From Bacillota bacterium (GTDB taxonomy: Bacteria > Bacillota > Sulfobacillia > JAUYEG01): a DNA stretch of 64,000 nucleotides. The notes below the pieces were generated by a model. The model did not search any database. It had not been told where the DNA came from and saw only the letters and a list, made by a program, of their open reading frames with translations. The DNA is taken from NCBI GenBank assembly GCA_040766985.1, contig JAXGPL010000011.1, positions 24,095-88,094 on the forward strand, written 5' to 3'. Positions 331 to 64,000 of the stretch are shown in pieces. Position 1 is the stretch's first letter, and each line of letters starts with the position of its first letter. The translations under genes and the position numbers were made by a program.

Positions 331-2589
331 TTGCGCAAACGGAAGATCACTGTATCCCGAAGCAGTAGGCACCTCAATCGCCGTCGCAGGTATCTCGGCA
401 TACTGGTGGCAGGGATACTGCTCGCCGTCGTTGCCGGGATGGCCACGCTTGCCTACCAACGCCGGGGCGCTCTTGATTCGGTCTCGACGTTCATCGCCGC
501 CCTCGCCGAAGGCGATATGGAAGCGGCCAGAACGTATCTCACCCCAGACGCGGCAGGACAACGCGACGCCCTCGAGTCGCTGGCTATCCTCGCCTGTAAT
601 GTCGAAGCGGCTCCCCGCATCGACCCTGGGGTTCGCATCGACTGGCCTGCGTACCTCATCCGCCGCGAGGTCGCGATACCGATTGTCCAGCCCGAAGAAA
701 CGGACTGGGTCAACATCGGTCTGCGGCGCACTTCCGCCGGTTGGCTCGTCTCGCGCCTCCCTGACCTGCTGGCGCACCCAGCCGCGGTCATGGTCCGGAC
801 GGAATCAGCGGGCCCGATTGGTCAGGCCGGCCTGCTGATTCGAGGGCGCGAGATCGCTGTTGACGAGGCTGGCGCGGGGCCACCCGGGCATGAAGTGGGG
901 TTCGCCGTGGTCCTGAGCGGCCGGCTGCTTTCATTCCAGCCGGCCGGGCAGCCGATAGAGCTCTCCAAGCTGGTCCTATTCAACGCTACGGGGCCCGTTG
1001 TCGAAACGGAGACCGAGGGAATCGTCCAGACCGCCCCGGGGCTGGCCCTCTACGACTTTAGCGGGTCCCGGCCCGCCCACCTCGGGCACCTTATCCCCGG
1101 CTCGACAGGACTCCAGGCATATGCGTGGCTGGGCAACGTCTATGCGGTCGCGCAGGTCGAGCCCTTTTCCCCGGCGCGCATCAGGGTCGCCCTGAACACG
1201 ACTGACTTCCTCGGCCTCGAGCACACCCGGGTTGCGGCCAGGTCCGGCGGCAGGCTGACCGTCACCGACCGGCTCACCGGCCGCAAGGTCAACATCAACG
1301 CCGGCACGACCGTCGTCCTCCGCCGCTCCGGAAGCGGTGTCATCGCCGAGACCACCGGCGGCTATCCGCTGCTGTCAAGCGACCTCCGCCTCTTCGTCAC
1401 GGCCGCCCAGGGTGAGCGGATCACGATCACCACCATCGGCCGCGGGACCGGCGCTAGCGGGTTCGCGCCTAGCTACCGCGGGCACATCGAGGTGGCCCCG
1501 GGCAGGGGCAGCGGCGTGAACGTGATCAACGACGTGCCGCTCAACGAATACCTCTACTCCGTCGTCCCCAGCGAGATGCCCGTCGGCTACGGCCTGGAGG
1601 CCCTCAAGGTCCAGGCCGTGGCGGCCCGCGCCTATGCCGTCGCGGCAATGCTCGGCGGCGGATACGTGTCCTACGGCGCTCATGCCGAGGATAGCGTGAT
1701 GTCCCAGGTGTACAACAACGTGCCGGAGGTGCCGGTGAGCAGCCAGGCCGTCGAGGCAACCAGCCTGGAGGTACCCGTGTACCAGGGCGAAATCGTCGAT
1801 GCCCGTTTCTACTCGACCTCCTGTGGCTTCACTGCCAACGCGCACGAGGTCTGGGCGACGAACGGCGAGTTTCCCGGCCAGGTCATACCCTACCTGCGGG
1901 CGGTTCCTCAGACCTCGCTCGTGGAAACCTTACCTGACGAGCAGGCAATGACCGGTTTCCTTAACCGCACCGACCTTGATGCGCCCGAAGCTGCCGCTCC
2001 GTTCTTCCGGTGGTCGGTCACCATGACCCGCGAGGAAATGGAGGCCAGCATCCGCTCAAACCTGCGCCCACGATACGAAGCCGACCCGGGATTTGTCCTC
2101 ACCCTGGACCAGCACGGCCGCTTCGTCTCAAAGGCGGTCCCCTCCGGCGACCCGATCGGCCGCCTGAAGGACATCCGGGTCATCAACCGCGGCCAGGGCG
2201 GCAACATCATGGTCCTTGAGATCGTCGGCACCAACGGGACGTACCGCATCGTCAAGGAGTACAATATACGCTTCACGCTCCGCCCGGTGCAGTACCTTGC
2301 GGGCAGGCCCCCTCTGGCCCTGCGGCTCCAGAACGGCTCGACGCGCAACAACTACTCCATCCTGCCGAGCGCGTTCACGGTGTTCGAGCTGACGCGGGAC
2401 GAGGCGGACGAGGTCACGCAGATCAGAATCGTGGGCGGCGGGAACGGGCACGGGGCCGGGATGAGCCAGACCGGCGCTGGAGCTCTGGCCGCCCGGGGCT
2501 GGAGCTACCGGGAGATCCTGCTCCACTACTACCCGGGCGCGGAGGTCATTGACCTGGCGGCAGAGGAGGGGCCCCCGGCTTCTCCGTAA
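331..2589 (+). CDS. SpoIID/LytB-domain peptidoglycan lytic transglycosylase with N-terminal TM and long extension
   Basis: GGAGG RBS before TTG; YLYSVVPSEMP (catalytic Glu), EALKVQAVAARAYA, GHGAGMSQTGA, ILLHYYPG motifs. Confidence 0.85.
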   Translation: MRKRKITVSRSSRHLNRRRRYLGILVAGILLAVVAGMATLAYQRRGALDSVSTFIAALAEGDMEAARTYLTPDAAGQRDALESLAILACNVEAAPRIDPGVRIDWPAYLIRREVAIPIVQPEETDWVNIGLRRTSAGWLVSRLPDLLAHPAAVMVRTESAGPIGQAGLLIRGREIAVDEAGAGPPGHEVGFAVVLSGRLLSFQPAGQPIELSKLVLFNATGPVVETETEGIVQTAPGLALYDFSGSRPAHLGHLIPGSTGLQAYAWLGNVYAVAQVEPFSPARIRVALNTTDFLGLEHTRVAARSGGRLTVTDRLTGRKVNINAGTTVVLRRSGSGVIAETTGGYPLLSSDLRLFVTAAQGERITITTIGRGTGASGFAPSYRGHIEVAPGRGSGVNVINDVPLNEYLYSVVPSEMPVGYGLEALKVQAVAARAYAVAAMLGGGYVSYGAHAEDSVMSQVYNNVPEVPVSSQAVEATSLEVPVYQGEIVDARFYSTSCGFTANAHEVWATNGEFPGQVIPYLRAVPQTSLVETLPDEQAMTGFLNRTDLDAPEAAAPFFRWSVTMTREEMEASIRSNLRPRYEADPGFVLTLDQHGRFVSKAVPSGDPIGRLKDIRVINRGQGGNIMVLEIVGTNGTYRIVKEYNIRFTLRPVQYLAGRPPLALRLQNGSTRNNYSILPSAFTVFELTRDEADEVTQIRIVGGGNGHGAGMSQTGAGALAARGWSYREILLHYYPGAEVIDLAAEEGPPASP

Positions 2590-2644
2590 CCCCGGCGGGG
2601 TTGATGAAACTTCACGCCTCCCCCTCCCTTTGCAGCTACGTACC

Positions 2645-3999
2645 TTAGTACCACGGCCCCTTTGACTCCCCGCTCGGTTGCGGCAATGGCCTGCCCACGT
2701 GCGGTTCGGTGTAGATGCGGCCTTCCTTGACGATCACGTGCCCGTCGCGGATCACGAGATTGACTCTTGCGAGATCGTTGAGGTCGGCATCCGGACGGCC
2801 CGCGACGACCAGCACGTCCGCCAGCTTGCCCGGCTCAAGCGTGCCCAGCAGATGGTCCACGTCGAGGATTGCTGCGTTGATCCGTGTTGCAGCCTCAAGA
2901 GCCTCAACCGTTGTCGCGCCCGCTTCGGCGAGAAACTGCAGTTCGCGGATATACGCCTGCGGCATGAAGCGGAACCAATCCATGACGATGTCGGTGCCGA
3001 CCCCGATGGTGACGCCGGCCTGCATCATCCGCCGCAGGACCTTCAGATTGGCTTCCTTGGAGAAGGTGAACCGCCGCGAAGTCGACCCGAAGTACCCGCC
3101 CCACAGGTCGAAGATGATCGTGTACGGGATTAACGTCGGTACGGCCTGTGTGCCTCGTTCCGCCATCATCCCGATTGTGGCGTCGGTGCGCGGCAGCGGG
3201 TGCTCGATTGTGTCGCAGCCCGCTTCGACGGCCCACTGGATGTAGAAGGTTTCGGCGTCGCACATTACCTTCAGACCGAGGGTGTGCGCCTCATCCACCG
3301 CCGCGTTGATCTCCTCACGCGAAAAGTGGCTCGCCACCTTGATTACGTCCGCCCCGGCCTTGAACTGCTGGCGCACCGCATTCCGCCAATCGTCCGGCCC
3401 CGAGGCCTCGCGGATCGTTCCGTAGCCGGCGGCTGTCGGTGACAGCCCCTCGGCGGCGTGACCCCCCGTGCCCGTGATCAGGGCGCCACACGCAAAAACC
3501 CGCGGCAGCGGCAGGCGGTTCTGCGCGACCCACGCCTTGAGCCTGAACGGCACGTCACCGTGTGACCCCGCGTCCCGCACGCTGGTGACGCCGCTCTCGG
3601 CCCAAAACCGCAGCCGTTCGATCGCCCGCAGCGTGCAGTCGCTCAGGCTCTGAGCCTGGTCCATCGGGACGCCGGGCTCCGTGTACGTTAGGTGGGTGTG
3701 CGCGTCGATCAGTCCAGGCATGACGGTATGCCCGGATACATCCAGGATCAGTGCATCGTCCGGCCAGCCGGCGCCGTCCGCCGGCAGGATCCTCTCGATC
3801 CGGTTGCCCCTGATCACCACGGAGCCGGGCGCAGCCGGCGAACCGGTCGCCGTCCAAACCCGGCCTCCCTGAGCACAGTCGTCTTGTCGGTGCTCCGGTC
3901 CCGCGTGGGTACCGGGACTCGGCGCGGATCATCGGAAACCGGTGTCTTCGCATCGAGCCATCTGCGCCGCTCGGTGTAACAAATGCTCTCGTTTGCCAT
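2645..3999 (-). CDS. metal-dependent amidohydrolase (single indel near 3868)
   Basis: PGLIDAHTH, GTD, GTLEPGKLAD motifs; GGAGG-ATG at 3999; adding one G restores ...VLRGGRVWTATG... Confidence 0.8.
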
Positions 4000-4163
4000 A
4001 TCAATTCCTCCCAGGGCCGGCTGTCGTGCGCGGCCACAGAGGGCGTGCTTCGGGGCACAGAGCCCGTCCTCCTTCGGGCGGATTGCGACCCCGGAGCGCG
4101 TGCAGGCGCGACGGCCCGTGCCGGTGAACCCGTTGGCAATCCGACCGTAGGGGAGGAAGCGGT

Positions 4164-5147
4164 ATGAAGCTGTTGGTGTTGGGGGGCACGCGTTTTCTTG
4201 GGCTCCATCTGGTTGAGGCCGCCAGGGCAGCGGGACATGAGGTGGCCGTGTTTAACCGCGGGCTGTCCCGCCCCGAGGCGCTGCCCGGGATCGAGAACCT
4301 GCGCGGCGACCGCGACGGCGGCCTCGATGCCCTGGCCGGACGAGAGTGGGATGCGGTGATTGACACTTCGGGCTACTTTCCCCGCGTGGTCGGCCTGGCC
4401 GCCCGGTTCTTCGCCGACCGCGCGGAGCGCTACGTGTTCATCTCGACGATCTCGGTGTACGCCGACTTTTCCCGCCCTGGACTGACCGAGCAGGCCGAAC
4501 TGGCGACCACCGACGCCCCGGCCTCCGAGTCGCGGGACGGCCGGACGTACGGCGCGCTCAAAGCCCTGTGTGAGGCCGAAGTGCTGCGGGCCGTGCCGGA
4601 ACGCTCGCTGATCATCCGGCCCGGCCTGATCGTCGGCCCCCATGACCCGACGGACAGGTTCACCTACTGGCCGCTGCGCGCCGCAAGGGGCGGGACCGTC
4701 CTCGCACCCGATGGGCCGGGCTGCCCGACGCAGTTCATCGATGCCCGGGATCTGGCCGCCTGGACTGTCCGTATGGCCTGCAGGGGCGGGACTGGTATCT
4801 ACCACGCCACGAGCCGTGCCGGTCAGTTCACCCTCGGCGATGTCCTGCAGGTGTGCCGAAGTGCGGTTTCCGCCGCGTCGGATCTCGAGTGGGTTTCCGA
4901 GGAGTTCCTGCTCAGGGCGGGGGTGACGCCGTGGATGGACCTTCCCCTCTGGGTTCCCGAGGCCCAGTCCGGGATGCTCATAGTCTATTGTCGCAAGGCT
5001 TTCGGGGCCGGACTCAGTATCCGTCCTATTACGGAAACCGTTACGGACCTGCTCGCGTGGGCTGCGACAAGGAGTGCCGCGCAATTGCGTGCAGGTCTGA
5101 GTCCCGAGCGCGAGGCCGCTCTGCTCGAGCAATGGAGGAGCCGCTAA
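4164..5147 (+). CDS. NAD-dependent epimerase/dehydratase (atypical SDR)
   Basis: GGTRFLG Rossmann motif, YGALK, IRPGLIVGP; GGAGG RBS. Confidence 0.85.
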   Translation: MKLLVLGGTRFLGLHLVEAARAAGHEVAVFNRGLSRPEALPGIENLRGDRDGGLDALAGREWDAVIDTSGYFPRVVGLAARFFADRAERYVFISTISVYADFSRPGLTEQAELATTDAPASESRDGRTYGALKALCEAEVLRAVPERSLIIRPGLIVGPHDPTDRFTYWPLRAARGGTVLAPDGPGCPTQFIDARDLAAWTVRMACRGGTGIYHATSRAGQFTLGDVLQVCRSAVSAASDLEWVSEEFLLRAGVTPWMDLPLWVPEAQSGMLIVYCRKAFGAGLSIRPITETVTDLLAWAATRSAAQLRAGLSPEREAALLEQWRSR

Positions 5148-5223
5148 ACCATTAAGTGCCATATCGGCCGCTGCTGGCTGGCGTGTTTTGCTAGGGCAGA
5201 ATATGCCCAAAGGAGGTGAGACG

Positions 5224-5451
5224 ATGGAGCGTTACGACGACAAGAACAAAGAGGACAGGGACAACTTCAAGGATTGGGACAACAAGAACAACGACGACAA
5301 GAACCTCGATAAGAATATCAACAAGGACAACCTCAACAAGGATAAGGATAACCTCAACAAAGACAACTTTGGCGAGGGCAACCTCAACAAGGACAACGAC
5401 AATCGCTCCGAGTTCTCGGAGGATCTTGCGCCACGCCGGAGGCGCCGCTAG
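5224..5451 (+). CDS. small Asn/Asp/Lys-rich repetitive protein (75 aa)
   Basis: strong AAAGGAGGTGA RBS; NLNKD repeats; C-terminal EFSEDLAPRRRRR. Confidence 0.7.
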   Translation: MERYDDKNKEDRDNFKDWDNKNNDDKNLDKNINKDNLNKDKDNLNKDNFGEGNLNKDNDNRSEFSEDLAPRRRRR

Positions 5452-5595
5452 CCCTCCTTATACTTGCCTGCTGACCTGTATGTTCCCGGGGGCGCACCAT
5501 ACCAGGTGCGCCCTCTTGGCGCCGGTTCGCCTCCAGCCCCCCGTTTGGAGTCGGCCACCCGGCGGAGATTCCGCGCCATGACCAACACTTTTTCC

Positions 5596-5622
5596 GGAAC
5601 TCGCCCGTGGTCGAATCGTCAA
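5596..5622 (+). promoter_or_regulatory. ECF-sigma-type promoter
   Basis: GGAAC-N16-CGTCAA directly upstream of the I42 inhibitor gene. Confidence 0.5.
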
Positions 5623-5654
5623 ATGCCGTGGAAACTGGAGGAGGTGAAATTCAG

Positions 5655-6041
5655 ATGAGAAACAGGGGTCTTGTCGCAGCAATCGCCCTCGTCGTAGTCC
5701 TTGCGGTAGGCTTTGTGGTGGTGGCTCACTTCCGCAGCGCAGAGGCTCTTTCCGAGGGGAAGGAGCGGGTGATCAACCTCAAGGTTGGCGACACATACAC
5801 GGTGGTTCTCGACTCGAATCAGTCAACGGGCTATTCATGGGCGCCCACCTTTGACTCCGCCTTGCTTGAACTGGTAGACCAGGAGTTCACGGCGTCGACA
5901 ACGATGCTCGGCGCAGCCGGCCAAGAGCACATCCGATTCAGGGCTCTTGCCAAGGGGACCACGGAGGTGCGGTTCGCCTACCAGCGGGCCTGGGAAGGCA
6001 ACGCTGAACGGGTCGCAACCTACCAGTTCAACATCAAGTAA
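5655..6041 (+). CDS. secreted/membrane-anchored chagasin-family (I42) cysteine protease inhibitor
   Basis: N-terminal hydrophobic helix; SNQSTGYSW, LGAAG, YQRAWE loops match the NPTTGY/GxGG/RPW chagasin motifs. Confidence 0.8.
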   Translation: MRNRGLVAAIALVVVLAVGFVVVAHFRSAEALSEGKERVINLKVGDTYTVVLDSNQSTGYSWAPTFDSALLELVDQEFTASTTMLGAAGQEHIRFRALAKGTTEVRFAYQRAWEGNAERVATYQFNIK

Positions 6042-52477: not shown

Positions 52478-54500
52478 GTGTCGAACTCAGGCAGGTCTTT
52501 TTTTGATAGCGGCTTTATCGACGAGGTGCGGGCAGCCGTGGACATCGCCGAAGTCGTCGGCGAGACCGTTGCCCTCAAGCGGCAGGGGCGCAACTACCTT
52601 GGCTTATGTCCGTTTCACTCGGAGAAGACGCCGTCATTCACTGTTTCCCCCGAGAAGCAGATTTTTCACTGCTTTGGCTGCGGCACCGGGGGAGACGTCT
52701 TTAGTTTTGTGGCGAAGCGGGACGGCCTGTCATTTCCGGAAGCCGTGCGTAAGCTTGCCGAGCGGGCAGGTATTCGCGTGCCTGAGCCTGATCTCACGCC
52801 GGGCGAGGCCAAGCGGCGCTCTGAACTGGACCAGTTGCGCAACGTGCTTGAGATGGCGTCGGCCCAGTACCGGCGTTGGCTGTGGTCGGATGCGGGGGCG
52901 CAGGCACAGCAGTTCTCGAGCGGCGCGGGATTCGAGCCGGGAGACGCTGGTGCAGTTCGCGATCGGCTGGGCGCCGCCGGGCTGGGACGGCCTGGTCAAC
53001 GCTCTGGGCAAGCGGGGCGTTACTGCGGAGTGGCTCGTGCGGGCCGGGCTCGCGAGCGAGGCCGAGGACAGGCGGCGGGTGTACGATCGCTTTCGGTCGA
53101 GGGTTATGTTCCCGATCTGGGACCAGCGCGGCAGGACGGTGGCCTTTGGTGGCCGGATCCTGCCCGGCTCGGCCGATGAGGACAGGGCGCCCAAGTACCT
53201 CAACTCACCGGAAACCGAGATTTTCGTCAAGGGGCGCCAGCTTTACGGCTACCATCTGGCCCGCGCGGCGATCCGTGAGATGGGACGGGCGGTTATCGTC
53301 GAGGGTTATGTGGATGCGATGACGTGTCACCGTGCCGGTTTCCGTAACACAGTCGCGTCCCTTGGTACGGCCTTGACCGTTGCGCAGGGGCGGATGCTGA
53401 TGGCCCAGACGCGCCAGGTGCTGGTGGCTTACGACGCGGACGCGGCAGGGCAGGGCGCGACCGTGCGGGGGCTTGACGTGCTGACCAATCTCGGCGCCGA
53501 TGTGCGGGTGGTAAGGCTGCCCGAGGGCAAGGATCCCGACGAGTGCATCAGCCGCGGCGGCCCGGAAGCGTTCGCGCATGCAGTGGACGGAGCGCAGGAT
53601 TACGTTGTGTACCGGTTCGACCTCGCGGCGAGGGAGGCGGCGGCCCGTTTTGGCACCGGCAGCGCGCGCGCCTCGGCGGCCATCGCCGCCGCGATTGCGC
53701 CAACGCTTACCTCGTTGGACAGTGCGGTTGCGAGGGAAGCATATGTCCAGCAGTTTGCCCGCTCCCTCGATGTAAGCGAGGCGAGTCTTTGGGCCGAGTT
53801 GCGCCGGGCGGTACAGGCGGAGCGAGCGGGCAGGCGGCGCGTCCAGGTGGTACGCCCGGGCGACCGCGGCGGGGCGGCGGCCGAGGAGTCCAGGACGCCC
53901 GCCCGCCAAGGGCATAACCCCAGCTTGGGCAGGGATAATAAAGGAAATACTGGGACAGCGTTACTTGGGGGGCCGGCGTACCGCAAGGCCCAGGAGCAGT
54001 TGATTGGGCTGATGCTGGTCGATCCTGAACACATGGCGCAGGTGCAGGCCAAGCTAAAGCCGGATGAATTCCCCGACGAGGCGTGTCGCGGGATCGCGCG
54101 GGCCCTTTTCCAGATGGCGGCGACCGGGACCTTGGCGGGATCAGCCGGCGCGGCGGGCGGCACGGGCGGGGCGAACGAAGCCGGCGGGGCGAACGGAGCG
54201 GGCGACACCGCTCGCCACCAGCTTCTCCGGGTGCTGGAGTTGAGTGGCCAGGCGGAGGCGGCGGCCCTGTTGACCAGGCTGCTGATGGCCGAGGGCGTAC
54301 CGGCGCCCGAGATCCGTGGCCGCGTATGCAGTGACTGCATACGGTTTCTGCAGGAATATAGCAGGAGTAATAGAATTAGCGAAATCCGACAGGAAGTACA
54401 ACGAGCCGAACGGGAAGGGAGAGCAGTACCGACTCGCCAGCTTGAGGAACTCTCAAGACTGATCCGCGAGAGCAAGGGGAACTCTTCGCCGACCGTCTGA
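52478..54500 (+). CDS. dnaG: DNA primase (indel(s) near 52915-52935)
   Basis: CPFH...CFGC zinc finger, [35 protein letters not shown]. Confidence 0.93.
54350..54378 (+). promoter_or_regulatory. sigmaH-type promoter inside the dnaG 3' end, upstream of sigA
   Basis: GCAGGAATA-N11-ATAGAATTA, an AT-rich patch in GC-rich coding DNA. Confidence 0.6.
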
Positions 54501-54578
54501 CGTATAGAGTACCATCCCGGTCCGACCGTGGTGGACGGCCCACTGGATCACGGAAGCGCTGAAGGGGAACTTCATCTG

Positions 54579-55697
54579 ATGGATTCGAAGGTCTTGAGTG
54601 CGGAGGGCGTAAAGGAGCTGCTTTTGCGCGGCAAAAAGCGTGGCGTCCTGACCTATCAGGAGATCATGGACGTCCTGCAGGCCGAAGACCTATCGCCCGA
54701 GCAGATAGAGGAAATCTACGATAAGCTCGCCCAGATGAACGTCGAGGTTGTCAACGACCTCGCCGAATCTGAGCGTTTGCGCAAGGATGACGGACAGACG
54801 GACGGCGAGACCGCCGAGGAAGAGGAAGAAGAGGACGCGGCCGGCGAGATAGCGGTGCCGGAAGGCATCTCGACCGACGACCCCGTTCGGATGTACCTCA
54901 AGGAAATCGGGCGCGTGCCGTTGCTGACCGCCGAAGACGAAGTCAGTCTGGCCAAACGCATCGAGGCGGGCGACGAAGAGGCAAAGCGCCAGCTCACTGA
55001 GGCCAACCTGCGTCTCGTCGTGAGCATCGCCAAGCGCTATGTCGGACGCGGCATGCTCTTCCTGGACCTGATCCAGGAGGGCAATCTAGGCCTGCTCAAA
55101 GCGGTCGAGAAGTTCGACTTCCGCAAGGGCTTTAAGTTCAGCACCTATGCGACCTGGTGGATTCGCCAGGCTATCACGCGGGCTATCGCTGACCAGGCGC
55201 GGACGATCCGTATCCCCGTGCACATGGTCGAGACGATTAACAAGCTGATCCGTATCTCGCGCCAGTTGCTGCAGCGGCTCGGCCGCGAGCCGTCCGCGGA
55301 GGAGATCGCGACGGAGATGGGGATTACCGAGGACCGCGTCCGCGAAATTATGAAGATCGCGCAGGAGCCGGTTTCCCTGGAAACCCCGATCGGCGAGGAA
55401 GAGGACAGCCACCTCGGCGACTTCATCGAGGATCAGGATGCCCCGGCGCCTGCCGAGGCTGCGTCGTTTTCGCTGCTCAAGGAGCAGCTTGAGGAAGTGC
55501 TGGGCACGCTCTCGGACCGCGAGGAGAGGGTGCTGCGGTTGCGCTTCGGACTCGACTACGGCCGGCAGCGGACGCTAGAGGAAGTCGGCTACGTATTCGG
55601 TGTGACGCGCGAGCGGATCCGTCAGATTGAGGCCAAAGCGCTGCGCAAGCTGCGCCATCCGACGCGGAGCAAGAAGCTCAAGGACTATCTGGACTAA
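54579..55697 (+). CDS. sigA: RNA polymerase primary sigma factor SigA
   Basis: [47 protein letters not shown]. Confidence 0.97.
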
Positions 55698-55757
55698 AGA
55701 CGGCGACGCAGGTCGGTTGATAGCCTTCGGTTTCGGTGCAGAGGTAAAGCTCAAAGT

Positions 55758-55788
55758 GCCCCCCCGCGGACGGCTCGGGGGGCTTTTT
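55758..55788 (+). terminator. intrinsic terminator after sigA
   Basis: GCCCCCCCG...CGGGGGGC followed by TTTTT. Confidence 0.7.
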
Positions 55789-57127
55789 GATGAGGGGGGC
55801 GGCGGATGTGGGGACGCATCGGCGGCCGGGCGAGGACCGGCAGCGCTTGTTTTACGGCTACTGGATAGTCGCGGCAACCTTTGTCATCCAGATGCTCGTC
55901 AACGGTTGCGGGATGTACGCGTTCAGCCTGTTCGTCAGGCCCCTTGAAGTCGCCTTTGGCTGGACGCGTGCCGGGATAATGCTCTCGCTCGTCGTTTACA
56001 ACGTTGTAACGGCGGCCGCGTCACCGGTCATCGGGCGGATCGTTGATCGCTACGGGCCGCGGCGTGTGATGGCCGTCGGAGCGCTGACCATGGGCGGCGG
56101 GCTGGCGGCCCTCAGCATGGCCACACAGCTATGGCACTACAACATTGTTTGGGGCTTGGTCGGCTGCGGTGTGTGCGCGACGGGATTCATCCCGACGACC
56201 GCGCTCCTGTTCAAGTGGTTCAACCGGCGCCGCGGCCTTGCGGTCGGGATCATGGGCGCGGGCATCGGGACGGGCGGGTTCGTGATGTCACCGCTGATCG
56301 GCGGGCTGCTCATCCCGCGCCTCGGCTGGCAGGGAGCCTTCCTAGCCCTCGGCGCGGTTGTAGCCGGAGTGTGCGCTCCGCTGGCCCTGCTGGTGGTGCG
56401 TTCCGAACCGGCCGAAGTCGGGCAGTTCGTCGACGGCATCGCCCCGGAGGACTCCGAATCGCCGGCGGCCAGTACCCGGGAGCGTGCGGGGGCAGGAGGA
56501 GCCACGCTCCCGGAGGCCCTCCGTACGCCGTCCTTCTGGCTGATGGCCGGCTCATTCACCCTCTTTAGTTTTGCGATGAACGCTATCTTCCAAAACCAGG
56601 TGCCGCACCTGCAAGATATCGGTTTCCCGGTTGCCGCTGCCGCGTCTGCCCTGTCCGCGGTCGGCATTGGCAGCGCAGTCGGCAAGCTGGCGTTCGGTTG
56701 GGTGTGCGACTGGCTGCGACCGCGGTACGTCTTCACCTTCGGGGTGCTTGTCCAGTTGGTGTCCGCCGTCATCTTGATCAGCATCCGGGCCCAGTCTTCG
56801 TTGGCCCTGATCTGGACGTATGCCGTGCTCTACGGCATCGGCATCGGGTGCTGGCCGATCATGAGCATGGTCGTCAGCGACACGTTCGGGCTGAGGCACT
56901 ACGGGGCCGTCTACGGGGTGCTTAACTTGATCCACCTGCTCGGCGGTTCCGCGGGCGCTCCGTTCGCGGGCTATGTGCACGACACGACGGGCAGCTATCA
57001 GCTGGCCTTCGCGGTCTTCGTCGCAGCGTTCGCGCTCGCGGTGCCGATGATCGTGATGAGCGGGCGGACGCGGGCCGGGGTGGCAGGGCGGTCGGCGCGC
57101 GAAGGACAGGTCATCGGCGGGCGATAG
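55787..57127 (+). CDS. MFS transporter (OFA/MCT-like)
   Basis: 12 TM pattern, GRIVDRYGPRR motif A, WFNRRRGLA. Confidence 0.85.
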   Translation: MMRGAADVGTHRRPGEDRQRLFYGYWIVAATFVIQMLVNGCGMYAFSLFVRPLEVAFGWTRAGIMLSLVVYNVVTAAASPVIGRIVDRYGPRRVMAVGALTMGGGLAALSMATQLWHYNIVWGLVGCGVCATGFIPTTALLFKWFNRRRGLAVGIMGAGIGTGGFVMSPLIGGLLIPRLGWQGAFLALGAVVAGVCAPLALLVVRSEPAEVGQFVDGIAPEDSESPAASTRERAGAGGATLPEALRTPSFWLMAGSFTLFSFAMNAIFQNQVPHLQDIGFPVAAAASALSAVGIGSAVGKLAFGWVCDWLRPRYVFTFGVLVQLVSAVILISIRAQSSLALIWTYAVLYGIGIGCWPIMSMVVSDTFGLRHYGAVYGVLNLIHLLGGSAGAPFAGYVHDTTGSYQLAFAVFVAAFALAVPMIVMSGRTRAGVAGRSAREGQVIGGR

Positions 57128-57360
57128 GTGGGCGTTTCCATCAGGGCCGACGTTTCCACTGCCGTTTTGTGCCGGCGTGGCTATGCCATGTGGGTAGGGA
57201 GACCATCTTTTCGCCCGCAAACCACTGGCGGGCTGCCCACAGCCGTTGCTCGCGCTCCGGCTATCGACAGCCCGCCTACAACACCCGCCGGCGGCGGCGG
57301 TTGCCCGTCGGCCCGCCCCGCAGTGTTACAGTCCTTAGGGCAGATCCGGTTCGGTCAAGT

Positions 57361-57992
57361 CTACTTCAGGATGTGAATCCACTCGCCGAACAGGAACTGC
57401 AGCCGCCCGATGAACAGGCTGATCCGGGCCATGACCGTGGTCCCGAAAGACGCCCCGAACCCGATCATCATCGCCCATTTGCCGACTTCGCTTGTGGCCA
57501 TCAGGACGCGCTTTAAGCCCTGAACAATGCCCGGGTCCGTCGGATTGATCCGCGCGGTCACGGTGAAGAAAAAGTACGTCAACGTGCTCGCGACGCACAC
57601 CACGAAGATCACGTTGTTGACGCTCGTCAGAGGGAGCATCGTCGCACGGACCTGGCGCATGAAGTTGGCGTCAAGCTGGCCGGTGATGGTGACGGCGCCA
57701 GCGACAGATCATGAACGACAGCGGATCCGGCTGGTCCAGGCGATCTTCGGAAACCAGCGCGCCAACAACAGAAGGCCGCCGCCAAGGGAAAAATCGGCCA
57801 TAGCTTGGAGCCGCTGAGAAGTTGCACCGCCATCTCCTGGATGTTTGTAAAGCCCATGACCGGAAAGGTGCGCGCCGTCAGGCCAATCAGCAAGTGCTCG
57901 GTGATCCTAAAGAACGCGTTCTCCTTATAGAGGTAGCTGTACGCTCCTATGGTCGCCAGGGCCGCAACCCATACGCCTACGCTCTGGCTCAT
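57361..57992 (-). CDS. uncharacterised multi-pass membrane protein, gene 4 of the DUF6754-like operon (indels ~57700-57800)
   Basis: MSQSVGVWVAALAT..YSYLYKEN.FFRI.EH...; C-terminal YFFFT...GFGASFG.TVMARISL.IGR.QFL; ATGA overlap with gene 3. Confidence 0.7.
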
Positions 57993-58815
57993 GCGGTAGC
58001 CCTCCCTGTCCTGGCGCCTTGCACCACGAAGAATAGGACGTTGCTGATGATCATCAGGACAACAAAGTAAAGGTGGCCGATCGATTGAGCGTCCATCGCC
58101 GCTATGCCTTACCCGGCGTCTTGGCCAGGTATTCGTACTCTGCTGCACCGGCCATGCCTCCGAGAAGACCCTTGAGCTGGCCGGAGGACAGGAATACGAG
58201 GTGGCCGACAATGCCCGGGCCGACCGTGCCGACGATGGTCGGTGTGCCGAATTTGGCCTCGATCTGGCGGATGAACCACCATCCTGCGTCGCCGGAGGTG
58301 AACGCGGCGCAGAGATCGATGTCCTGGATCCCGCTGATGCCATCCATCAACGGCAAGTCCTCTATCGGCGTGTTGTAGTAGTCGGTGTCATACATGCCGC
58401 GTAGGTCCTCGCCCAAGGCCTGGACGGCGGTCTCCTGCCCGGCGCGGTAGGGCATCAGCACGATGTCGGAGCCGTAGACGTACCCGTAGTCGGGAGCGAC
58501 CTGTTTGACCAGCCGGTCGCCGTACATGACGCCCTCGGGCACCAGGGTGACAATGATGATCTTGTGGCTGTTGGCCATCAGGTGCTTTGCGATGGCAAGG
58601 GTCTGGGGCCAGTTTTCAGCTTCGCTCGCCGGAGCCACGTCGGCGCAGATGATCGCGGTCGAACCGGCCGGCAGTGAGTCCACGAACTCATAGGCCATGC
58701 GGGCAGGGTCGCCAACGCGCAGCGGGAGGCCCAGCGGTTTATACAGCGGCAGCATGATGCTCACCACCAGGATCACGTAAAGGAAACGAACGTCAAGGTG
58801 CAGCAGCCTATTCAT
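57989..58815 (-). CDS. uncharacterised membrane-anchored protein, gene 3 (indel near 58105)
   Basis: N-terminal TM, globular alpha/beta domain, SGQL.GLLGG..GAAEYE; frame correction adds MDAQSIGH plus a C-terminal TM ending at the ATGA overlap. Confidence 0.7.
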
Positions 58816-59438
58816 TCACCGACACCCCCCAGGTGCCCGCGCTCGAGGCCGAGGATCACGCGCATGCTCAAGGCGGTCATGCCCAGCGCCGCGCCAATCG
58901 TGATTCCGCGGAGGGCTGCGGTGTTCGGTATGTCGAGCAGCCACGCGGAGATCACGGGGATTTCTGACCACATCGCGTAACCGACGCCCACGCTGCCGAG
59001 CATAACGATCATGCCCGACGCCAGAAGAACCGCCGACTGCGCGTTGCGCACACGGAACGCCCGCCAGGTTGCACTGGTCATGTAAAAGACGGTCGTCGAG
59101 TACCACGTCGCGCTCAACGGCTGGTAAAGGTTGTTCCAGAAGAACTGGTACGCCGGGTGCTTGGGCGATGCCAGAAGGCCAAGCCCAAGGTAACCGTATA
59201 GGGTAACCAACAGCAGCAAGCTGTACGGCCAGTACGCCCGCCGTTCGCGCGTCCTGGTCAGGTGGATGCGGGTTAGATTGCCCATCCCGAGGGCCAGCGC
59301 GAAGGCCGCCAGGATGATCCGCCAGCTGACAAGCTCCCTGCTGATGGTGCCTAGCGCGGGTACATTGAAAAAATAGTCAACGAGTACGATGCCGCCGGCG
59401 ACCATGCCGATCCATACCGGCAGCTCTTTTCTCAGCAT
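58812..59438 (-). CDS. uncharacterised multi-pass membrane protein, gene 2
   Basis: about 6 TM, RAFRVRN, RGITIG.ALG, R.ILGLER; GGAGG RBS. Confidence 0.75.
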   Translation of the reverse strand: MLRKELPVWIGMVAGGIVLVDYFFNVPALGTISRELVSWRIILAAFALALGMGNLTRIHLTRTRERRAYWPYSLLLLVTLYGYLGLGLLASPKHPAYQFFWNNLYQPLSATWYSTTVFYMTSATWRAFRVRNAQSAVLLASGMIVMLGSVGVGYAMWSEIPVISAWLLDIPNTAALRGITIGAALGMTALSMRVILGLERGHLGGVGE

Positions 59439-59478
59439 GTTCTAACCCTCCCATGTGCCTTCGGAACTCGCCGGGCGG

Positions 59479-60240
59479 TCATTTCTTGATCAGATCAACC
59501 AGCAGGTTGCTCTTTGCCGTGACCAGGATCGAGCCAAGCACGATCAGGCCCACCGCCAGGTACTTGCCCATCTCCTGGCCGACCAGGAAACCTACCTGCG
59601 CCGGGTTCTTGGATAGATAAGCGCCCGCGGCAAAGATCTCCTCGCCGATCAGCGAGTAGTCACAGCACGCGACAAAGAACGGAAGCTGGTGGGTGTTGGC
59701 TGTGCCCGAGATCTGCAGGGCGCCGACGACGTTGCCGGCCTCGGCGAAGATTAGCGATTCGTGGTAGTAGTTGCCGAACATGAACGTGGCTGCGACCCTC
59801 TCGCGCTGCAGGATGCCGAGCACGGCTGCGCGCAGCGAGGTGTCTGCCAGGTATCTTACGTCATCGGGGTTGTAGGATTCCTCGCGTCCCACCTGACGGT
59901 AGGCGCCGCGGATGATTTCCTCGGAGATCGGTTGGGTTTCCGGTAAAGCGTTACAGACGATCATCCTGGCTTCGTGTTTGGCAACCTGCTCTGCGCAGTA
60001 GCGCATGACCTCGAACGCCGCGAAGGTCTGAGCATCAAGGGCGCCGGTGGGCTGGATGAATGCCGCGGGGCGGCCCATTTCAGTAATGCGTCCTACGGCC
60101 TCGTCAATAGCATCAAGACCTGGTAGACGACGGATGGGAAGATTGCCGGTGCGGCGGAACTTATGAATGGCTTGCCAGGCGACAGCCAGGAGCAGAACGA
60201 AGACAACGAGTACGGAGAGCCGTCCGTCTCTGATGATCAA
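59479..60240 (-). CDS. DUF6754-like membrane protein, gene 1
   Basis: AAGGAGG-TTG start; IRRLPGLDAIDEAVGR.TEMGRP, QLPFFVACCDY.LIGEE.FAAGAYLS motifs recognised from memory. Confidence 0.72.
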   Translation of the reverse strand: MIIRDGRLSVLVVFVLLLAVAWQAIHKFRRTGNLPIRRLPGLDAIDEAVGRITEMGRPAAFIQPTGALDAQTFAAFEVMRYCAEQVAKHEARMIVCNALPETQPISEEIIRGAYRQVGREESYNPDDVRYLADTSLRAAVLGILQRERVAATFMFGNYYHESLIFAEAGNVVGALQISGTANTHQLPFFVACCDYSLIGEEIFAAGAYLSKNPAQVGFLVGQEMGKYLAVGLIVLGSILVTAKSNLLVDLIKK

Positions 60241-60375
60241 GGGGTTTCCTCCTTCGTGCGGGCAAGAGCCGCCGAATAATGATTGTCCGGTCTCAACTGG
60301 GTAATCACAGCGTCGGCCACGACGTGCACGACACTGACCACCGCGCTGCTCGTCCCCCCTGGGCTTGGCAACGGC

Positions 60376-60450
60376 AATATAGTCAGGATCATCCCGGCTA
60401 AGGTGATCGGGCCCGTCCTGGTAAAATGTGGTCAGGCCCATCCCGGCTAA
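60376..60450. repeat. pair of 26-bp direct repeats (22/26 identical, 49-bp period)
   Basis: aatatagtcaggatcatcccggctaa (60376-60401) and aatgtggtcaggcccatcccggctaa (60425-60450). Confidence 0.8.
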
Positions 60451-60538
60451 TGAAGGCGACTCACCCCCCAAGGAAACCGATTGGTATCTGCGTGCGCTTT
60501 GCCGGGCTAGCTCCTTCCCGGGCGCATGAGGGTAATAG

Positions 60539-60797
60539 AAAACCCCAGCGGCACATCCCTCGCACACAGGCCGCCTAGCCCTGTGGCTGGAAACCCTCCC
60601 GCTGGGGTTTTTTATGCCCACGGTGTGGCGGGTTGGATCCTGGCCGGCCCAATCTATCGATCGGGCCGCGAACCGCTGCCATTCTCTCCGGCAGCCTGCC
60701 TCGCCTGGCGCCGCTCGGACCTGTCGCTCAACGCTGCATCGCGCCTTTGCACTTCGGTGCGATGCCCGGCCGCCGAACCCAAGGCGCCCTTCCAACC
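60539..60797 (-). ncRNA. putative structured cis-regulatory leader RNA with terminator-like stem
   Basis: closing stem GGUUGGA/UCCAACC, three internal hairpins, then a 13-bp stem AAAACCCCAGCGG/CCGCUGGGGUUUU. Confidence 0.5.
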
Positions 60798-60945
60798 AGT
60801 GAAACCTACCCTCTACCCGCCCCTGCGCAGCTGGTCCGCGAACGGGCAGGTATTAGTCCCAAATCTACAGTCAGGACCAGCTACTGTCGCTTCCGAGGGC
60901 AAAAAGCACGAAACCGTGTGTGTTCGTCAATTGCGGGGCGGGGTG

Positions 60946-61046
60946 GTGGGGGTGTCTGGAAAATTCAACCATGTCACCAAGCTCCAGTGTTGCGCCGTCA
61001 ACACCCCCGATGTGGGGGTGTCTGAAACTTCAACCATGTCATCAAG
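60946..61046. repeat. two ~36-bp direct repeats separated by 30 bp
   Basis: GTGGGGGTGTCTGGAAAATTCAACCATGTCACCAAG and GTGGGGGTGTCT-GAAACTTCAACCATGTCATCAAG. Confidence 0.85.
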
Positions 61047-61231
61047 TGCAGATTGTGTGCGATTATGCTCAGGAGGCCAGGTTTGTGGAAACCGTGATCT
61101 CGAACGACCACAAAGGCGCTTTGAGGTCGTTTGGGAGCACACGTCTTGCGAAATGAGGATCGGGAAGGTACAGGTTTCCAAGAAAGTGTGCTCTGCGCGA
61201 CCATATCACATCAGCGAAGCACACGCTGGCC

Positions 61232-61317
61232 TTGTGGTAGATTCGCGGTTCGGCATATAATGTTTGGTGTTGATGTTCGGTGTTAGGTTGCCTTAGCGGC
61301 ACGAAGTGGTTTACAAT
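61232..61317 (+). promoter_or_regulatory. tandem sigmaA-like promoters of the tRNA gene
   Basis: TTGTGG-N18-TATAAT and TTGCCT-N18-TACAAT. Confidence 0.45.
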
Positions 61318-61334
61318 CGGTTTGCGTGTTTGAT

Positions 61335-61409
61335 TCCTCGCTAGCTCAATGGTAGAGCATCCGGCTGTTAACTGGAGTGGTTGACGTTCGAGTCGTCCGC
61401 GAGGAGCCA
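61335..61409 (+). tRNA. tRNA-Asn (GTT)
   Basis: acceptor TCCTCGC/GCGAGGA, D-arm GCTC/GAGC, anticodon loop CT-GTT-AA, TTCGAGT T-loop, encoded CCA. Confidence 0.9.
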
Positions 61410-61416
61410 GTATACC

Positions 61417-61455
61417 AGGGCTTTGGTGAGGGAAACCCGCCAAAGGCCCTTATTA
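61417..61455 (+). terminator. hairpin after tRNA-Asn
   Basis: AGGGCTTTGG...CCAAAGGCCCT followed by TATTATT. Confidence 0.45.
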
Positions 61456-62740
61456 TTGTCCAAGCGCGCACCGTATCCCGAGCCTGTCTATCCACTGTGG
61501 GCCTGGCAGGCCAATGTAGTCATGCTTGGGCAATCCATTTACCTTCTGGAAGCAAGCCCCTAGACACAATGGAAGGGCCGCCCCTTCGCTATGACGTAGG
61601 TTATCGGGGTTCGCGAGAGCGGAACTCGACAACTGGCCGCAGACTAGCCCACTCAACTAGGCAAGTCGAGCCGCACCGGGAACCGGCGGGCGCGGACACG
61701 GTTAGGGAGAAACTCTCGTGGTTCCTATGATAAGGCGTCAAGCCCGGAACTCACGCACACTTAGACCGAGGCAGAAAGCTCCCCGACGGATCAGAGTCAT
61801 GCGTTACCCAACACGCGAATATCAGGCTGATCCACCGTCGTAACGCCCCGCCCGCCTGCCGTTGCTGGCGCGGTGCGGAACAAAGAATAGGCGTAGTCAC
61901 GTGCCTCTTGACACGGCCCTTCCATATCAGGAGCCTGTCTCCTTTCGAGAAGGAGGTTCGGTACCGTGAGCCCAGGACCGGGCGCGGCTTCGGTGGCCTC
62001 TTCCTTGAGGGCTGCGGTGCTCCCTTGCGCGCTATCTGTAAGAATATGTCGAGCAATAGTGTCTCCCGCCCCTTCACTGCTATATGGCATATGATATGCA
62101 GAGTTGGGCCAACTTCTCCAGGAAACGTATTGGTGCGTCCAGGGCTTGCCAATAGGTGTAACTGCCAGCGGGGGATGTCTCTCCCACGGGCGAAACGCAG
62201 AATGGGTTGCTCCTCAAAACAGCCCCAGCCCTGCGGGACGCTATCATGGACGGTTGTGTGCCATTCTCCCTGACTGTTTGTCATCACGGAGTATTGGAGG
62301 AAAGCCCTGGAGGAAAACGAGTTGCATGCCCTGCAGGCACGGCATGGCCTACGCGTATACCAGATCACCGGGCGAGCGATTGAGAGGATGTCTGGCGTGA
62401 GAGCCACATTCGGGCGTTACTCCAGATAGCCGCAATGATCTCTTCGACAGTGCCAAGCTTGATGAGATGCTGAGCGCAATGGTGTTGACTTCAGGGGCGT
62501 CTATCGAGGCTCGGGTCTTCGTTCCAACAGAAGCTTGAGCGCCCTGCGTCTGACGGACTGGTGTTTCTGGCCGACCCGTCGCAGATGAACATCTCGTCTC
62601 CAATCCGAACCATGACTTCATGCCGGGGGTGTATTGAAGCTAGAGAACCTCGGGCTCGTGCCTCGGTAAGTCCGGGTCGCTTACCATAGGACGGCTGACG
62701 CGGGGTAGTTGACCCAATGCAGAGTTCGCCAGCACGGTTC

Positions 62741-63317
62741 TGGAGTTGCTCCTGTTTTCGTGGACAGTCTGACGCTATGTAGCGACTGCCCTTTGATTGC
62801 ACCGATTCTTGCCTTTGCTGCGAGTTCGCCATTATCCTCTCGTAGTCATCTGGACTCACATACCCGAGGGCGGAATGACGCCGCTTCCGGGTTGTAGAAC
62901 CCCTCAAGGTACCCGAAGATCGCCGTTGCCAGGGCCTTGCCTGGTTGGCCAGTGGTCTCGGTCTGGGCAGCCCGTTTGCAGACTGGCGAAGAAGCTCGGC
63001 CATCGCGTTATCCAAGGCGTCGCCCACTGTGCCCATTGAGCCCAGGATGCCCGCCTGCTCAAGCCGATTGCGGAAAGTGACGGCGGTATATTGCGAACCG
63101 TGATCTGAATGGTGATCAGGCTCTGGGTCGGCTGCCGCGCTGCCAGACGGCCATGTTCACGGCCCTCAACACGAGATCCGTCTTGGCTCGAGCATCCATC
63201 GCCCACCCGACAACTCCTCGGTGGAGTACGCATCTAGCACTGTCGCTAGGTATAACCAACCCTCGCCGGTGGAGTGCTGGAGTAAGATCGGCGACCCACA
63301 ACTGGTTTGGCCTAGAC
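62741..63317 (-). mobile_element. degraded IS3-family element (transposase C-terminal part plus terminal IR)
   Basis: RPNQLWVADLT, VVGWAM, DNAMAE, RRHSALGYVSP fragments over several frames; terminal TGGAGTTGCTCCTGTTTTCGTGGACA at 62741. Confidence 0.82.
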
Positions 63318-64000
63318 TGCGTAATCCAGTGAATTCGACCACTCAGTCCAGACGAAAGTGACCACCGATTCCAATCCATTCCTCGACCAGTGAATCCAGC
63401 CCATTGCGACCACCTGTCGGAGCGAAGAGCGACGCACGGCGTGTTCAACTCTTGCTCTTGAGTGGTTTGGTGTTCAACCCTGGGTTGGTCCTTCCGCATG
63501 GATTCCCCTTCATCTCGATTTTGTGAGCGTAGTGCACGAGCCGGTCGAGGATGGCGTCGGCCAGTGAGATCGGGCACCACGCTATGCCAGTGTTCGAGCG
63601 GAGCCCGGCTGGCGACGACGGTGGAGAATCGCCGGCTGCGTCCGCTGATGACCTCAAGGAGATCGCGACCCTCAGATGGAGTAACCGGGCGCAAGGCCCC
63701 AGTCGTCGAGGATGAGGCGAGTTGTGTCCAGCCAACTGGTTCATGCGCTTGGGATATGAGCGCCGTCGCCTTTGGCTAGCGCAACATCCTCGAGGATCTG
63801 TGGCACCCGGGATTATGCGGAACAGTCTGCCGGCAGGCGGCGTTGCCGAGGGCGCACGCAATGAAGGTCTTGCCGGCGCCAGTGGGGCCGGTGATCACCA
63901 CGTTCTGCCCACGGGCCAGCCAGTCGCCGGTCGATAGGTGCCTCAGCAGGCTGCGGTCGAGGCCGCGGGGTGCGTAATCGATGTCCTCAAGACAGGCGCT
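63318..64000 (-). mobile_element. istB: IS21-family element: frameshifted istB helper ATPase and right end (continues past window)
   Basis: GPTGAGKT Walker A, LDDWG Walker B, ADAILDRLVH, GESMRK; end TGCGTAATCCAGTGAATTCGACCA with four TCCA...GACCA internal repeats. Confidence 0.85.

Follow-up and report, generated by a model that had tools for sequence, protein, structure and literature searches.

A four-gene DUF6754 membrane module associated with long GlmL/MutL-family actin-fold ATPases: a tentative modular uptake system in Bacillota

Organization of the operon

A compact operon of four genes, here called A, B, C and D, resides in a 64,000-nucleotide stretch of contig JAXGPL010000011.1 (positions 24,095 to 88,094 of the forward strand) from a Bacillota bacterium of the GTDB lineage Sulfobacillia (assembly GCA_040766985.1). 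This whole stretch is referred to as the window, and its first letter is position 1. In this study we describe the operon, which is built around a protein of the DUF6754 family, together with its relatives in other genomes and its association with two proteins encoded outside the window, i.e. X, an actin-fold ATPase of the GlmL/MutL family, and its partner protein Y. The four genes are tightly packed on the minus strand of the window in the order A-B-C-D:

59479..60240, minus strand: gene A, 253 amino acids (aa), TTG start with GGAGGA upstream; DUF6754 protein
58812..59438, minus strand: gene B, 208-aa polytopic membrane protein, recognised from its open reading frame (ORF) and the ATGA overlap with C
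57989..58815, minus strand: gene C, 275 aa after reading an additional G behind 58104
57361..57992, minus strand: gene D, 212-aa polytopic membrane protein after reading six insertions or deletions (indels)
60241..60480, minus strand: upstream leader without recognisable regulatory RNA; an additional T behind 60252 falls inside it

Both ATGA overlaps noted in a previous reading of the bare letters (the sequence-only reading) are present, one at the B/C junction (58812-58815) and the other where the end of C meets the start of D (57989-57992). The same is true of the two motifs that it singled out: GEEIFAAGAY is located immediately N-terminal of membrane helix 2 of A, and GAAEYE immediately N-terminal of the second helix of C.

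Protein A matches the Pfam profile of DUF6754 (PF20539) with an E value of 5.7e-77 (258.8 bits, cut-off 27) over profile positions 9-253 of 257. The remaining three proteins gave no Pfam or NCBIfam match at E <= 1, save for a sub-threshold row of DUF3094 for B (E 0.62). B contains about six hydrophobic segments (counted by eye) and the conserved motifs FYIxSAAYRAFR and LGLERxHLGG, with residues R126, R177 and G197 invariant in an alignment of 36 sequences, and its neighbours in the Protein Atlas are annotated solely as 'hypothetical protein'. D, whose alignment comprises 34 intact relatives, is described as a six-helix membrane protein. Profiles of A, B, C and D found no relative with a solved structure among PDB sequences. 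The operon contains no gene for an ATPase, an enzyme II (EII) of the phosphotransferase system (PTS) or a classical binding protein, in agreement with the sequence-only reading, and nothing contradicted its view that the set is uncharacterised: none of the four proteins matches a characterised transporter or enzyme by sequence, and A and C have no outstanding fold match.

Probable assembly errors in genes C and D

As assembled, C runs into a stop at 58102, which leaves a 237-aa ORF (58102-58815) and a 35-aa ORF (57989-58096), and a three-frame translation finds D split across three frames. The window was compared with Logan contigs of four metagenome runs; no RNA run contained this part of it. 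Contigs of three of these (runs X1 and X3 of study P1, and run X2 of study P2; these run labels are unrelated to the proteins X1 and X2 described below) are mostly at least 99% alike to the window and differ from it by eight small indels:

behind 57707, in D: +CC
behind 57722, in D: +G
behind 57780, in D: +G
behind 57820, in D: +GCG
at 57863, in D: -1
behind 57873, in D: +G
behind 58104, in C: +G (contigs of all three runs)
behind 60252, upstream of A: +T
57707..58104, no strand assigned: seven 1-3-base differences to independent contigs, probable assembly indel errors

When the seven indels falling in C and D were applied by script, two open frames of 275 aa (C) and 212 aa (D) were obtained. 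In end-to-end alignments the restored C shares 173 of 275 residues with an intact paralogue (locus L020), and the restored D shares 120 of 210 residues with the D of locus L001. Intact paralogues of C are 269-280 aa long and possess a C-terminal membrane helix, which corresponds to the 35-aa ORF of the window, while those of D (196-218 aa) occupy a single frame.

The truncated C, the three-framed D and the further copies that are broken in this genome could suggest that the window carries a decaying pseudogene set with real frameshifts, a view that we consider barely credible. The contigs of three runs and two studies restore both frames by way of the seven indels, although their independence is incomplete, as the metagenome run that covers the stretch best may be the source sample. 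The indel sites are short base runs, as read from the sequence, and many unrelated genes of the same assembly are split in a similar way (e.g. a DUF4438 gene of 136 + 201 aa, an SBP_bac_5 gene of 334 + 275 aa, and the gene of protein Y1 in two frames). These three are found among loci L081 and L085, on contigs C2 and C12 of this genome (G000). Moreover, no stop occurs within any DUF6754 match of 40 related genomes. Since the contigs restore the frames, unrelated genes are split alike and the DUF6754 matches of the relatives are free of stops, the frameshifts in C and D are most likely assembly errors and the genes themselves intact; on the strength of the independent contigs and the restored full-length frames, the pseudogene interpretation was rejected. 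The many 1-2-base indels in this assembly mean that frameshift or pseudogene findings in this genome need to be checked against reads.

Copies and distribution of the module

Searches with the window proteins (tblastn) identified 13 loci in the 2.36-Mb genome (84.8% complete), all with the order A-B-C-D and with identities of 27-64%, i.e. diverged copies. As assembled, four are intact, most of the others have single breaks, two are heavily broken and one is a lone C. The latter (locus L020, G000 C23:131071-141900; 5001-5840 of the locus) encodes an intact protein of 280 aa that is 64% identical to the C of the window; the last residues of a B are found upstream, and the gene of an M55 D-aminopeptidase is located just upstream of C. 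This lone C may be a remnant or a stand-alone C. An M55 gene is also present upstream of the single module of genome G004 (L067).

With an intact paralogue operon as tblastn query, 38 loci from this genome and at least 20 others were read, and every one of the 37 complete units among them, including that of the window, has its four genes on one strand in the order A-B-C-D. This set is far beyond chance, and the four-gene, always co-occurring membrane set around DUF6754 that had been postulated from the sequence is thus borne out. An Ignavibacteria contig (L004) contains two complete tandem modules, with B-C-D of a third module at the start of the locus and an additional A at its end.

DUF6754 was detected in 19 of the 40 relatives, with 1 to 28 matches per genome, and in nine of 150 genomes of a phylum-wide sample. 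About 1000 distinct homologues of A and C were found at E <= 0.001, all of them unnamed or annotated as 'DUF6754 domain-containing'; one DUF6754 protein in this set is listed under Anaerobranca gottschalkii. The Protein Atlas clusters of B and Y cover several phyla. The four proteins differ in conservation: mean pairwise identity is highest for A (48.5%), intermediate for D (40.0%) and B (39.9%), and lowest for C (35.4%). To judge from the listings returned, literature searches found no paper on DUF6754, PF20539 or PF13941, and no relevant paper on GlmL/actin/ATPase, DUF4438 or DUF362.

Topology and folds of A and C

The AlphaFold2 (AF2) model of A (predicted local distance difference test, pLDDT, 91.7) consists of a membrane helix, a Rossmann-like alpha/beta domain (approximately residues 37-211) and a second membrane helix. 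C, modelled via the 64%-identical intact paralogue (pLDDT 96.1), has the same layout of helix, Rossmann-like domain and helix. For A, helix 1 has a net charge of +3.8 on its domain side and the N tail one of +0.5; in C the tails carry +1.2 and +3.1, and the domain side +0.2 and -0.8. Applied to these charges, the positive-inside rule points in opposite directions for A and C, and the two domains are predicted to face opposite sides of the membrane, with A oriented N-out and its domain in the cytoplasm, and the domain of C outside the cell.

Such an orientation of A fits the long natural forms of this protein, which carry exported Fn3, PKD or PQQ-propeller domains at the N-terminus. One of them (P0272) combines DUF6754, in a single protein, with a TctC solute-receptor domain (profile positions 1-106, 94.2 bits). 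Relatives of A of about 460 aa, considered as possible A-B fusions, turned out in the three cases scanned to be extended at the N-terminus, DUF6754 forming the C-terminal part; one of the three, P0241, has no likeness to B, and these proteins are therefore not A-B fusions. Similarly, relatives of C of 445-474 aa are not C-D fusions, as they consist of C plus an extra C-terminal exported domain. No fusion of A with MutL was present among 49 longer A forms, which is weak evidence of absence.

Foldseek returned nothing for A at E <= 1e-3 and a single best match for C at 6.9e-4 (TM-score 0.29), with all TM-scores at or below 0.39. In VIA comparisons the top structures were 2cun_B for A and 1kjn_B for C, each at a Z-score of 10.2; many rows were tied, and 1kjn_B also scored 9.9 for A. 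Single lobes of ATP-binding cassette (ABC) sugar-binding proteins reached Z 8.2-8.9 for C, tied with dehydrogenases and unrelated Rossmann folds. Families absent from these match lists are not thereby ruled out. A comparison of profiles by hhalign gave a probability of 42% over 80 columns for A versus C, and 6% for B versus D, so duplication within either pair is unproven. The two membrane-anchored globular domains noted in the sequence-only reading share a Rossmann-like fold class but, to judge from the charges, face opposite sides of the membrane.

The X-Y pair and its link with the module

The genome contains seven matches to PF13941 (GlmL/MutL), one of which, on contig C16, is the classical short form located beside an aminomutase gene. 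The other proteins are mostly longer (514 to about 660 aa) and most of them are followed by Y, which has no significant Pfam match; about six X-Y pairs are present in all. Two of these form the cluster X1-Y1-X2-Y2 (G000 C2:64430-71554), which is preceded in locus L081 (G000 C2:59463-75022) by genes for asparaginase II, a DUF4438 protein and an FHA-domain protein. The matches of X1 (E 1.5e-121, 406.8 bits) and X2 (E 3.8e-124, 415.3 bits) to PF13941 (cut-off 27) extend along the whole profile. The phosphate motifs of the ASKHA superfamily, ATDxGSTTTKA and DxGGATTD, are invariant in 33 X sequences, and X orthologues are 65-84% identical across families. The X profile found no relative with a solved structure among PDB sequences. 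For Y2 a weak TIM-barrel-like similarity was the best result among solved structures (NanE, E 0.06), accompanied by barrel-sandwich features (RnfC_N / Biotin_lipoyl), and its Protein Atlas clusters are annotated only as 'hypothetical'.

All 19 other DUF6754-positive relatives contain a Y2 orthologue (E < 1e-120), as does a single one (G009) of the 21 negative relatives; a further DUF6754-negative genome, G017, has a weak Y2 match. Across the phylum-wide sample of 150 genomes, seven contain both DUF6754 and Y, two DUF6754 only, one Y only, and 140 neither. More telling than this co-occurrence is gene adjacency. X-Y genes directly follow D, on the same strand, in eight related genomes: seven of them (G002, G004, G005, G018, G026, G027 and G036) contain the eight-gene string A-B-C-D-X1-Y1-X2-Y2, and in G013 X2-Y2 follows D. 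The genomes with this arrangement mostly have one or two modules each. The unknown proteins of 390-459 aa encoded next to the C3b copy in the genome under study do not correspond to X-Y, and none of them matches Pfam significantly.

Predicted docking of A on X

When residues 30-220 of A were folded together with X2, the interface score ipSAE (interaction prediction score from aligned errors) was 0.70, 0.63 and 0.60 (median 0.63), compared with 0.00 for the best of three controls. No fewer than 85% of the contacts are common to the runs, with a partner pLDDT of 78 or more. Solved complexes attain 0.63 in 116 of 157 cases and mismatched pairs in two of 215, a calibration that holds only roughly here, because our own alignments were used. 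The predicted interface of A (residues 47-48, 50-51, 53-57, 88-90, 170, 173, 175 and 194) coincides with the invariant motif GRxTEMGRP plus D194; conservation is complete or no lower than 90% at eight of its 16 positions, as against 41 of 253 in the whole protein. On X, it includes the invariant SGGxDGG stretch (168-177), which is common to X1 and X2. The modelling thus supports, as a prediction, the docking of A on X at GRxTEMGRP.

These results bear directly on the ion- or solute-translocating complex without visible ATPase motifs put forward in the sequence-only reading, taken here as a self-contained secondary transporter to which X-Y would be unrelated. Such a complex would be in keeping with the lack of an ATPase gene in the operon, with the 12 of 13 loci in this genome that have no adjoining X-Y, and with the two DUF6754-positive genomes without a Y match (G056, which is 78% complete, and G140, whose DUF6754 hit is partial). 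However, the distribution of Y in both genome samples, the adjacency of X-Y to D and the predicted docking at the invariant motif of A, in a cytoplasmic domain that is the most conserved part of the module, make this explanation very unlikely. The operon itself is free of an ATPase, as had been claimed, but its function probably is not.

A proposed modular uptake system

We tentatively propose a modular uptake system powered by an actin-fold ATPase, of which the four genes would encode the substrate-specific membrane unit; we hold this reading to be quite possible though short of probable. In this model A, B, C and D would assemble into one heteromeric inner-membrane module, in which B and D, with approximately six helices each, would form the membrane core. 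The variable Rossmann-like domain of C, placed outside the cell between two helices, would meet the substrate and set the specificity, whereas the invariant GRxTEMGRP face of A would dock on cytoplasmic X, encoded together with its constant partner Y. ATP turnover in X-Y might then be passed via A to the membrane core, and the substrates taken up would probably be nutrients derived from amino acids or peptides. The presence of 13 diverged modules and about six X-Y pairs in one genome is what leads us to read the module as the substrate-specific unit of a modular system. Expansion into old paralogues appears typical of substrate-specific uptake units, and we count it in favour of this role. A more far-reaching claim seems doubtful, namely that primary active transporters of a new class are at hand, whose interchangeable, substrate-specific four-protein units (up to 28 per genome) are powered via GRxTEMGRP by an ASKHA ATPase-partner complex instead of a P-loop, P-type or rotary ATPase.

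Several observations weigh against the proposed uptake system. We know of no transporter driven by an ASKHA protein. The p-values of the co-occurrence overstate its significance, because related genomes are not independent. The numbers of Y-like and DUF6754 matches are out of proportion in some genomes (14 versus 3 in G030, 11 versus 1 in G016), and other X-Y pairs of the genome under study adjoin ABC-transporter genes (L082, L085); X-Y is therefore not dedicated to the DUF6754 module alone, and could serve other partners or be an enzyme pair. As far as the models go, the fold matches of A and C are generic and Rossmann-like only, and C would be a single lobe, not a two-lobe binding protein. 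Finally, the association of the module with peptidase genes is weak. In the module flanks of this genome, 13 of 132 ORFs are of the peptidase type, compared with five of 148 in 12 random regions (p 0.048), but with a broader count the latter number rises to eight of 148 (p 0.18), and a comparison by region gives 7/13 versus 4/12 (p 0.43). In other genomes, seven of 21 units have a peptidase-type ORF at most three ORFs away.

The possibility that X-Y is an enzyme pair leads to a different explanation, in which A, B, C and D constitute a passive or ion-coupled channel or carrier, and X-Y docks on A to convert the imported compound at the membrane. X-Y would in this case be kinase-like or hydantoinase/oxoprolinase-like, and ATP would drive accumulation chemically, not mechanically. 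There is a precedent for such an arrangement in glycerol kinase, which has been proposed to act at the glycerol facilitator GlpF. X belongs to the ASKHA superfamily and has weak Hydantoinase_A matches (E 1.5e-5, 1.3e-4 and 5.5e-6) beside that to MutL, and the TIM-barrel-like and barrel-sandwich features of Y2 also suit an enzyme. The same can be said of X-Y paralogues that exceed the modules in number in some genomes and adjoin ABC-transporter genes, of the genes for amidases, M24 creatinase-like proteins, racemases and asparaginase found nearby, and of the predicted docking of A on X. Nevertheless, no catalytic site was identified in Y, and one conserved X-Y core (65-84% identity) would have to handle the products of up to 28 diverged modules, so a motor fits better than a substrate-specific enzyme. 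We therefore regard coupling of a facilitator to a trapping enzyme as unlikely.

The module might also have no role in transport and act as a platform with a docked actin-fold protein, serving transmembrane signalling, anchoring, export or envelope assembly. The outward domain of C and the Fn3, PKD and propeller extensions of A would then bind the envelope or external polymers. Actin-fold proteins are known to dock on membrane proteins in pilus and division machines (PilM on PilN, and FtsA), which lends this idea some weight, as do the natural A forms with such ectodomains and the Rossmann-like domains, which give no transport signature. Moreover, FtsW/RodA genes on one side and M23/M50 genes on the other flank one conserved module locus, in this genome as well as in G001. 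Yet 13 to 28 diverged copies per genome would be unusual for an assembly machine, most module loci are found among catabolic genes, and one A form carries the TctC solute-receptor domain. A platform of this type is, in our opinion, distinctly unlikely.

Leader and genetic neighbourhood

The sequence-only reading had assumed an attenuator-like leader and, on that basis, an importer. Searches of Rfam at the gathering score detected a single RNase P fragment across all 11 paralogue loci and nothing else, and at E <= 1 a tRNA and sub-threshold chance rows in positions 55000-64000 of the window. No terminator-like hairpin was found upstream of A on the strand of A, and the fold of the leader gives a mild signal only (z-score -1.98; four of 200 shuffles fold equally well). 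With no relevant Rfam match at 12 loci, no hairpin and such a z-score, these three analyses give no support for a riboswitch or attenuator upstream of A. A role as importer is a plausible guess.

The immediate neighbours of the window copy are uninformative, as a convergent gene of the major facilitator superfamily (MFS) lies on one side, and a tRNA gene and insertion-sequence debris on the other:

52503-54500: dnaG primase gene
54528-55697: gene of an rpoD-type sigma factor
55787-57127: MFS transporter gene, convergent with the operon
61335-61406, plus strand: tRNA gene (55.3 bits)
61750-64000: ORFs resembling insertion-sequence debris by eye, none of which passed Pfam at 1e-5
about 62494-63036: integrase-core-like fragment
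63776-64000: P-loop IstB-like ORF, which runs off the end of the window

Several other genes were repeatedly or singly observed beside the module. A gene for a DUF362 protein with 4Fe-4S domains is located just upstream of it at four loci in four genomes (L019, L056, L062 and L072); at L062 this gene sits together with one for DUF4438, which also lies near X1 in the genome under study (L081). A module in genome G033 is preceded by a ribonucleotide reductase gene (L060, positions 2022-5780) that contains both an intein and a LAGLIDADG domain.

Significance

If the proposed uptake system is real, a very widespread gene set would represent a type of membrane machine absent from textbooks, and the orphan 'long GlmL' actin-fold ATPases would acquire a role. 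A large part of the unknown membrane proteins found in bacteria of anaerobic digesters, wastewater and sediments would likewise be accounted for. The neighbouring genes suggest a peptide- or amino-acid-fermenting lifestyle, and in such fermenters the system could be a main route of nutrient entry. The eight-gene A-B-C-D-X1-Y1-X2-Y2 clusters of single-copy genomes are compact enough for cloning and testing as one unit. New in this study are the eight-gene adjacency in this class, the docking prediction on a bacterial copy mapped to the invariant motif of A, and the TctC-fused form of A, together with a test of the peptidase link against random background regions, whose outcome is sobering, and the tracing of the breaks in the window to assembly errors.

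Comparison with known systems

Protein A is a full-length member of the Pfam family DUF6754, which has only been catalogued, without an assigned function, and B, C and D belong to no family. With the tripartite ATP-independent periplasmic (TRAP) and tripartite tricarboxylate (TTT) transporters the module has in common an outward, membrane-anchored alpha/beta domain, and a TctC receptor domain occurs in fusion with one form of A. In contrast to the receptors of these systems, C has one lobe, and the cytoplasmic domain and ATPase link of the module have no TRAP or TTT counterpart; Pfam searches with A-D gave no match to DctQ/DctM or TctA/TctB. Likewise, no PTS EIIA, EIIB, EIIC or EIID domain was matched at E <= 1 in Pfam or NCBIfam, nor ABC_tran, BPD_transp or ABC_membrane at E <= 1 in Pfam.

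X1 and X2 resemble GlmL/MutL of the glutamate mutase operon (PF13941), which they match at full length with retention of the ASKHA motifs, but X is approximately 150 residues longer, is paired with Y instead of a B12 mutase, and is linked to a membrane module. In being a cytoplasmic ASKHA protein predicted to sit on the cytoplasmic part of a membrane protein, X is reminiscent of PilM on PilN, of FtsA and of the glycerol kinase that acts with GlpF; no relationship to these was found at the level of sequence or family, and copy number and genetic context differ.

A parallel in design is offered by energy-coupling factor (ECF) importers, in which many substrate-specific membrane units share one energising module. 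The likeness is one of logic only, as A-D match no EcfA/A', EcfT or S-component in Pfam or NCBIfam. As in ECF and shared-ATPase ABC importers, many diverged membrane units are accompanied by a far better conserved cytoplasmic ATPase module, encoded elsewhere or beside one of the units. Unlike in these importers, each unit comprises four proteins and exposes a single domain on either side of the membrane, and the candidate ATPase has an actin fold (ASKHA) and not a P-loop.

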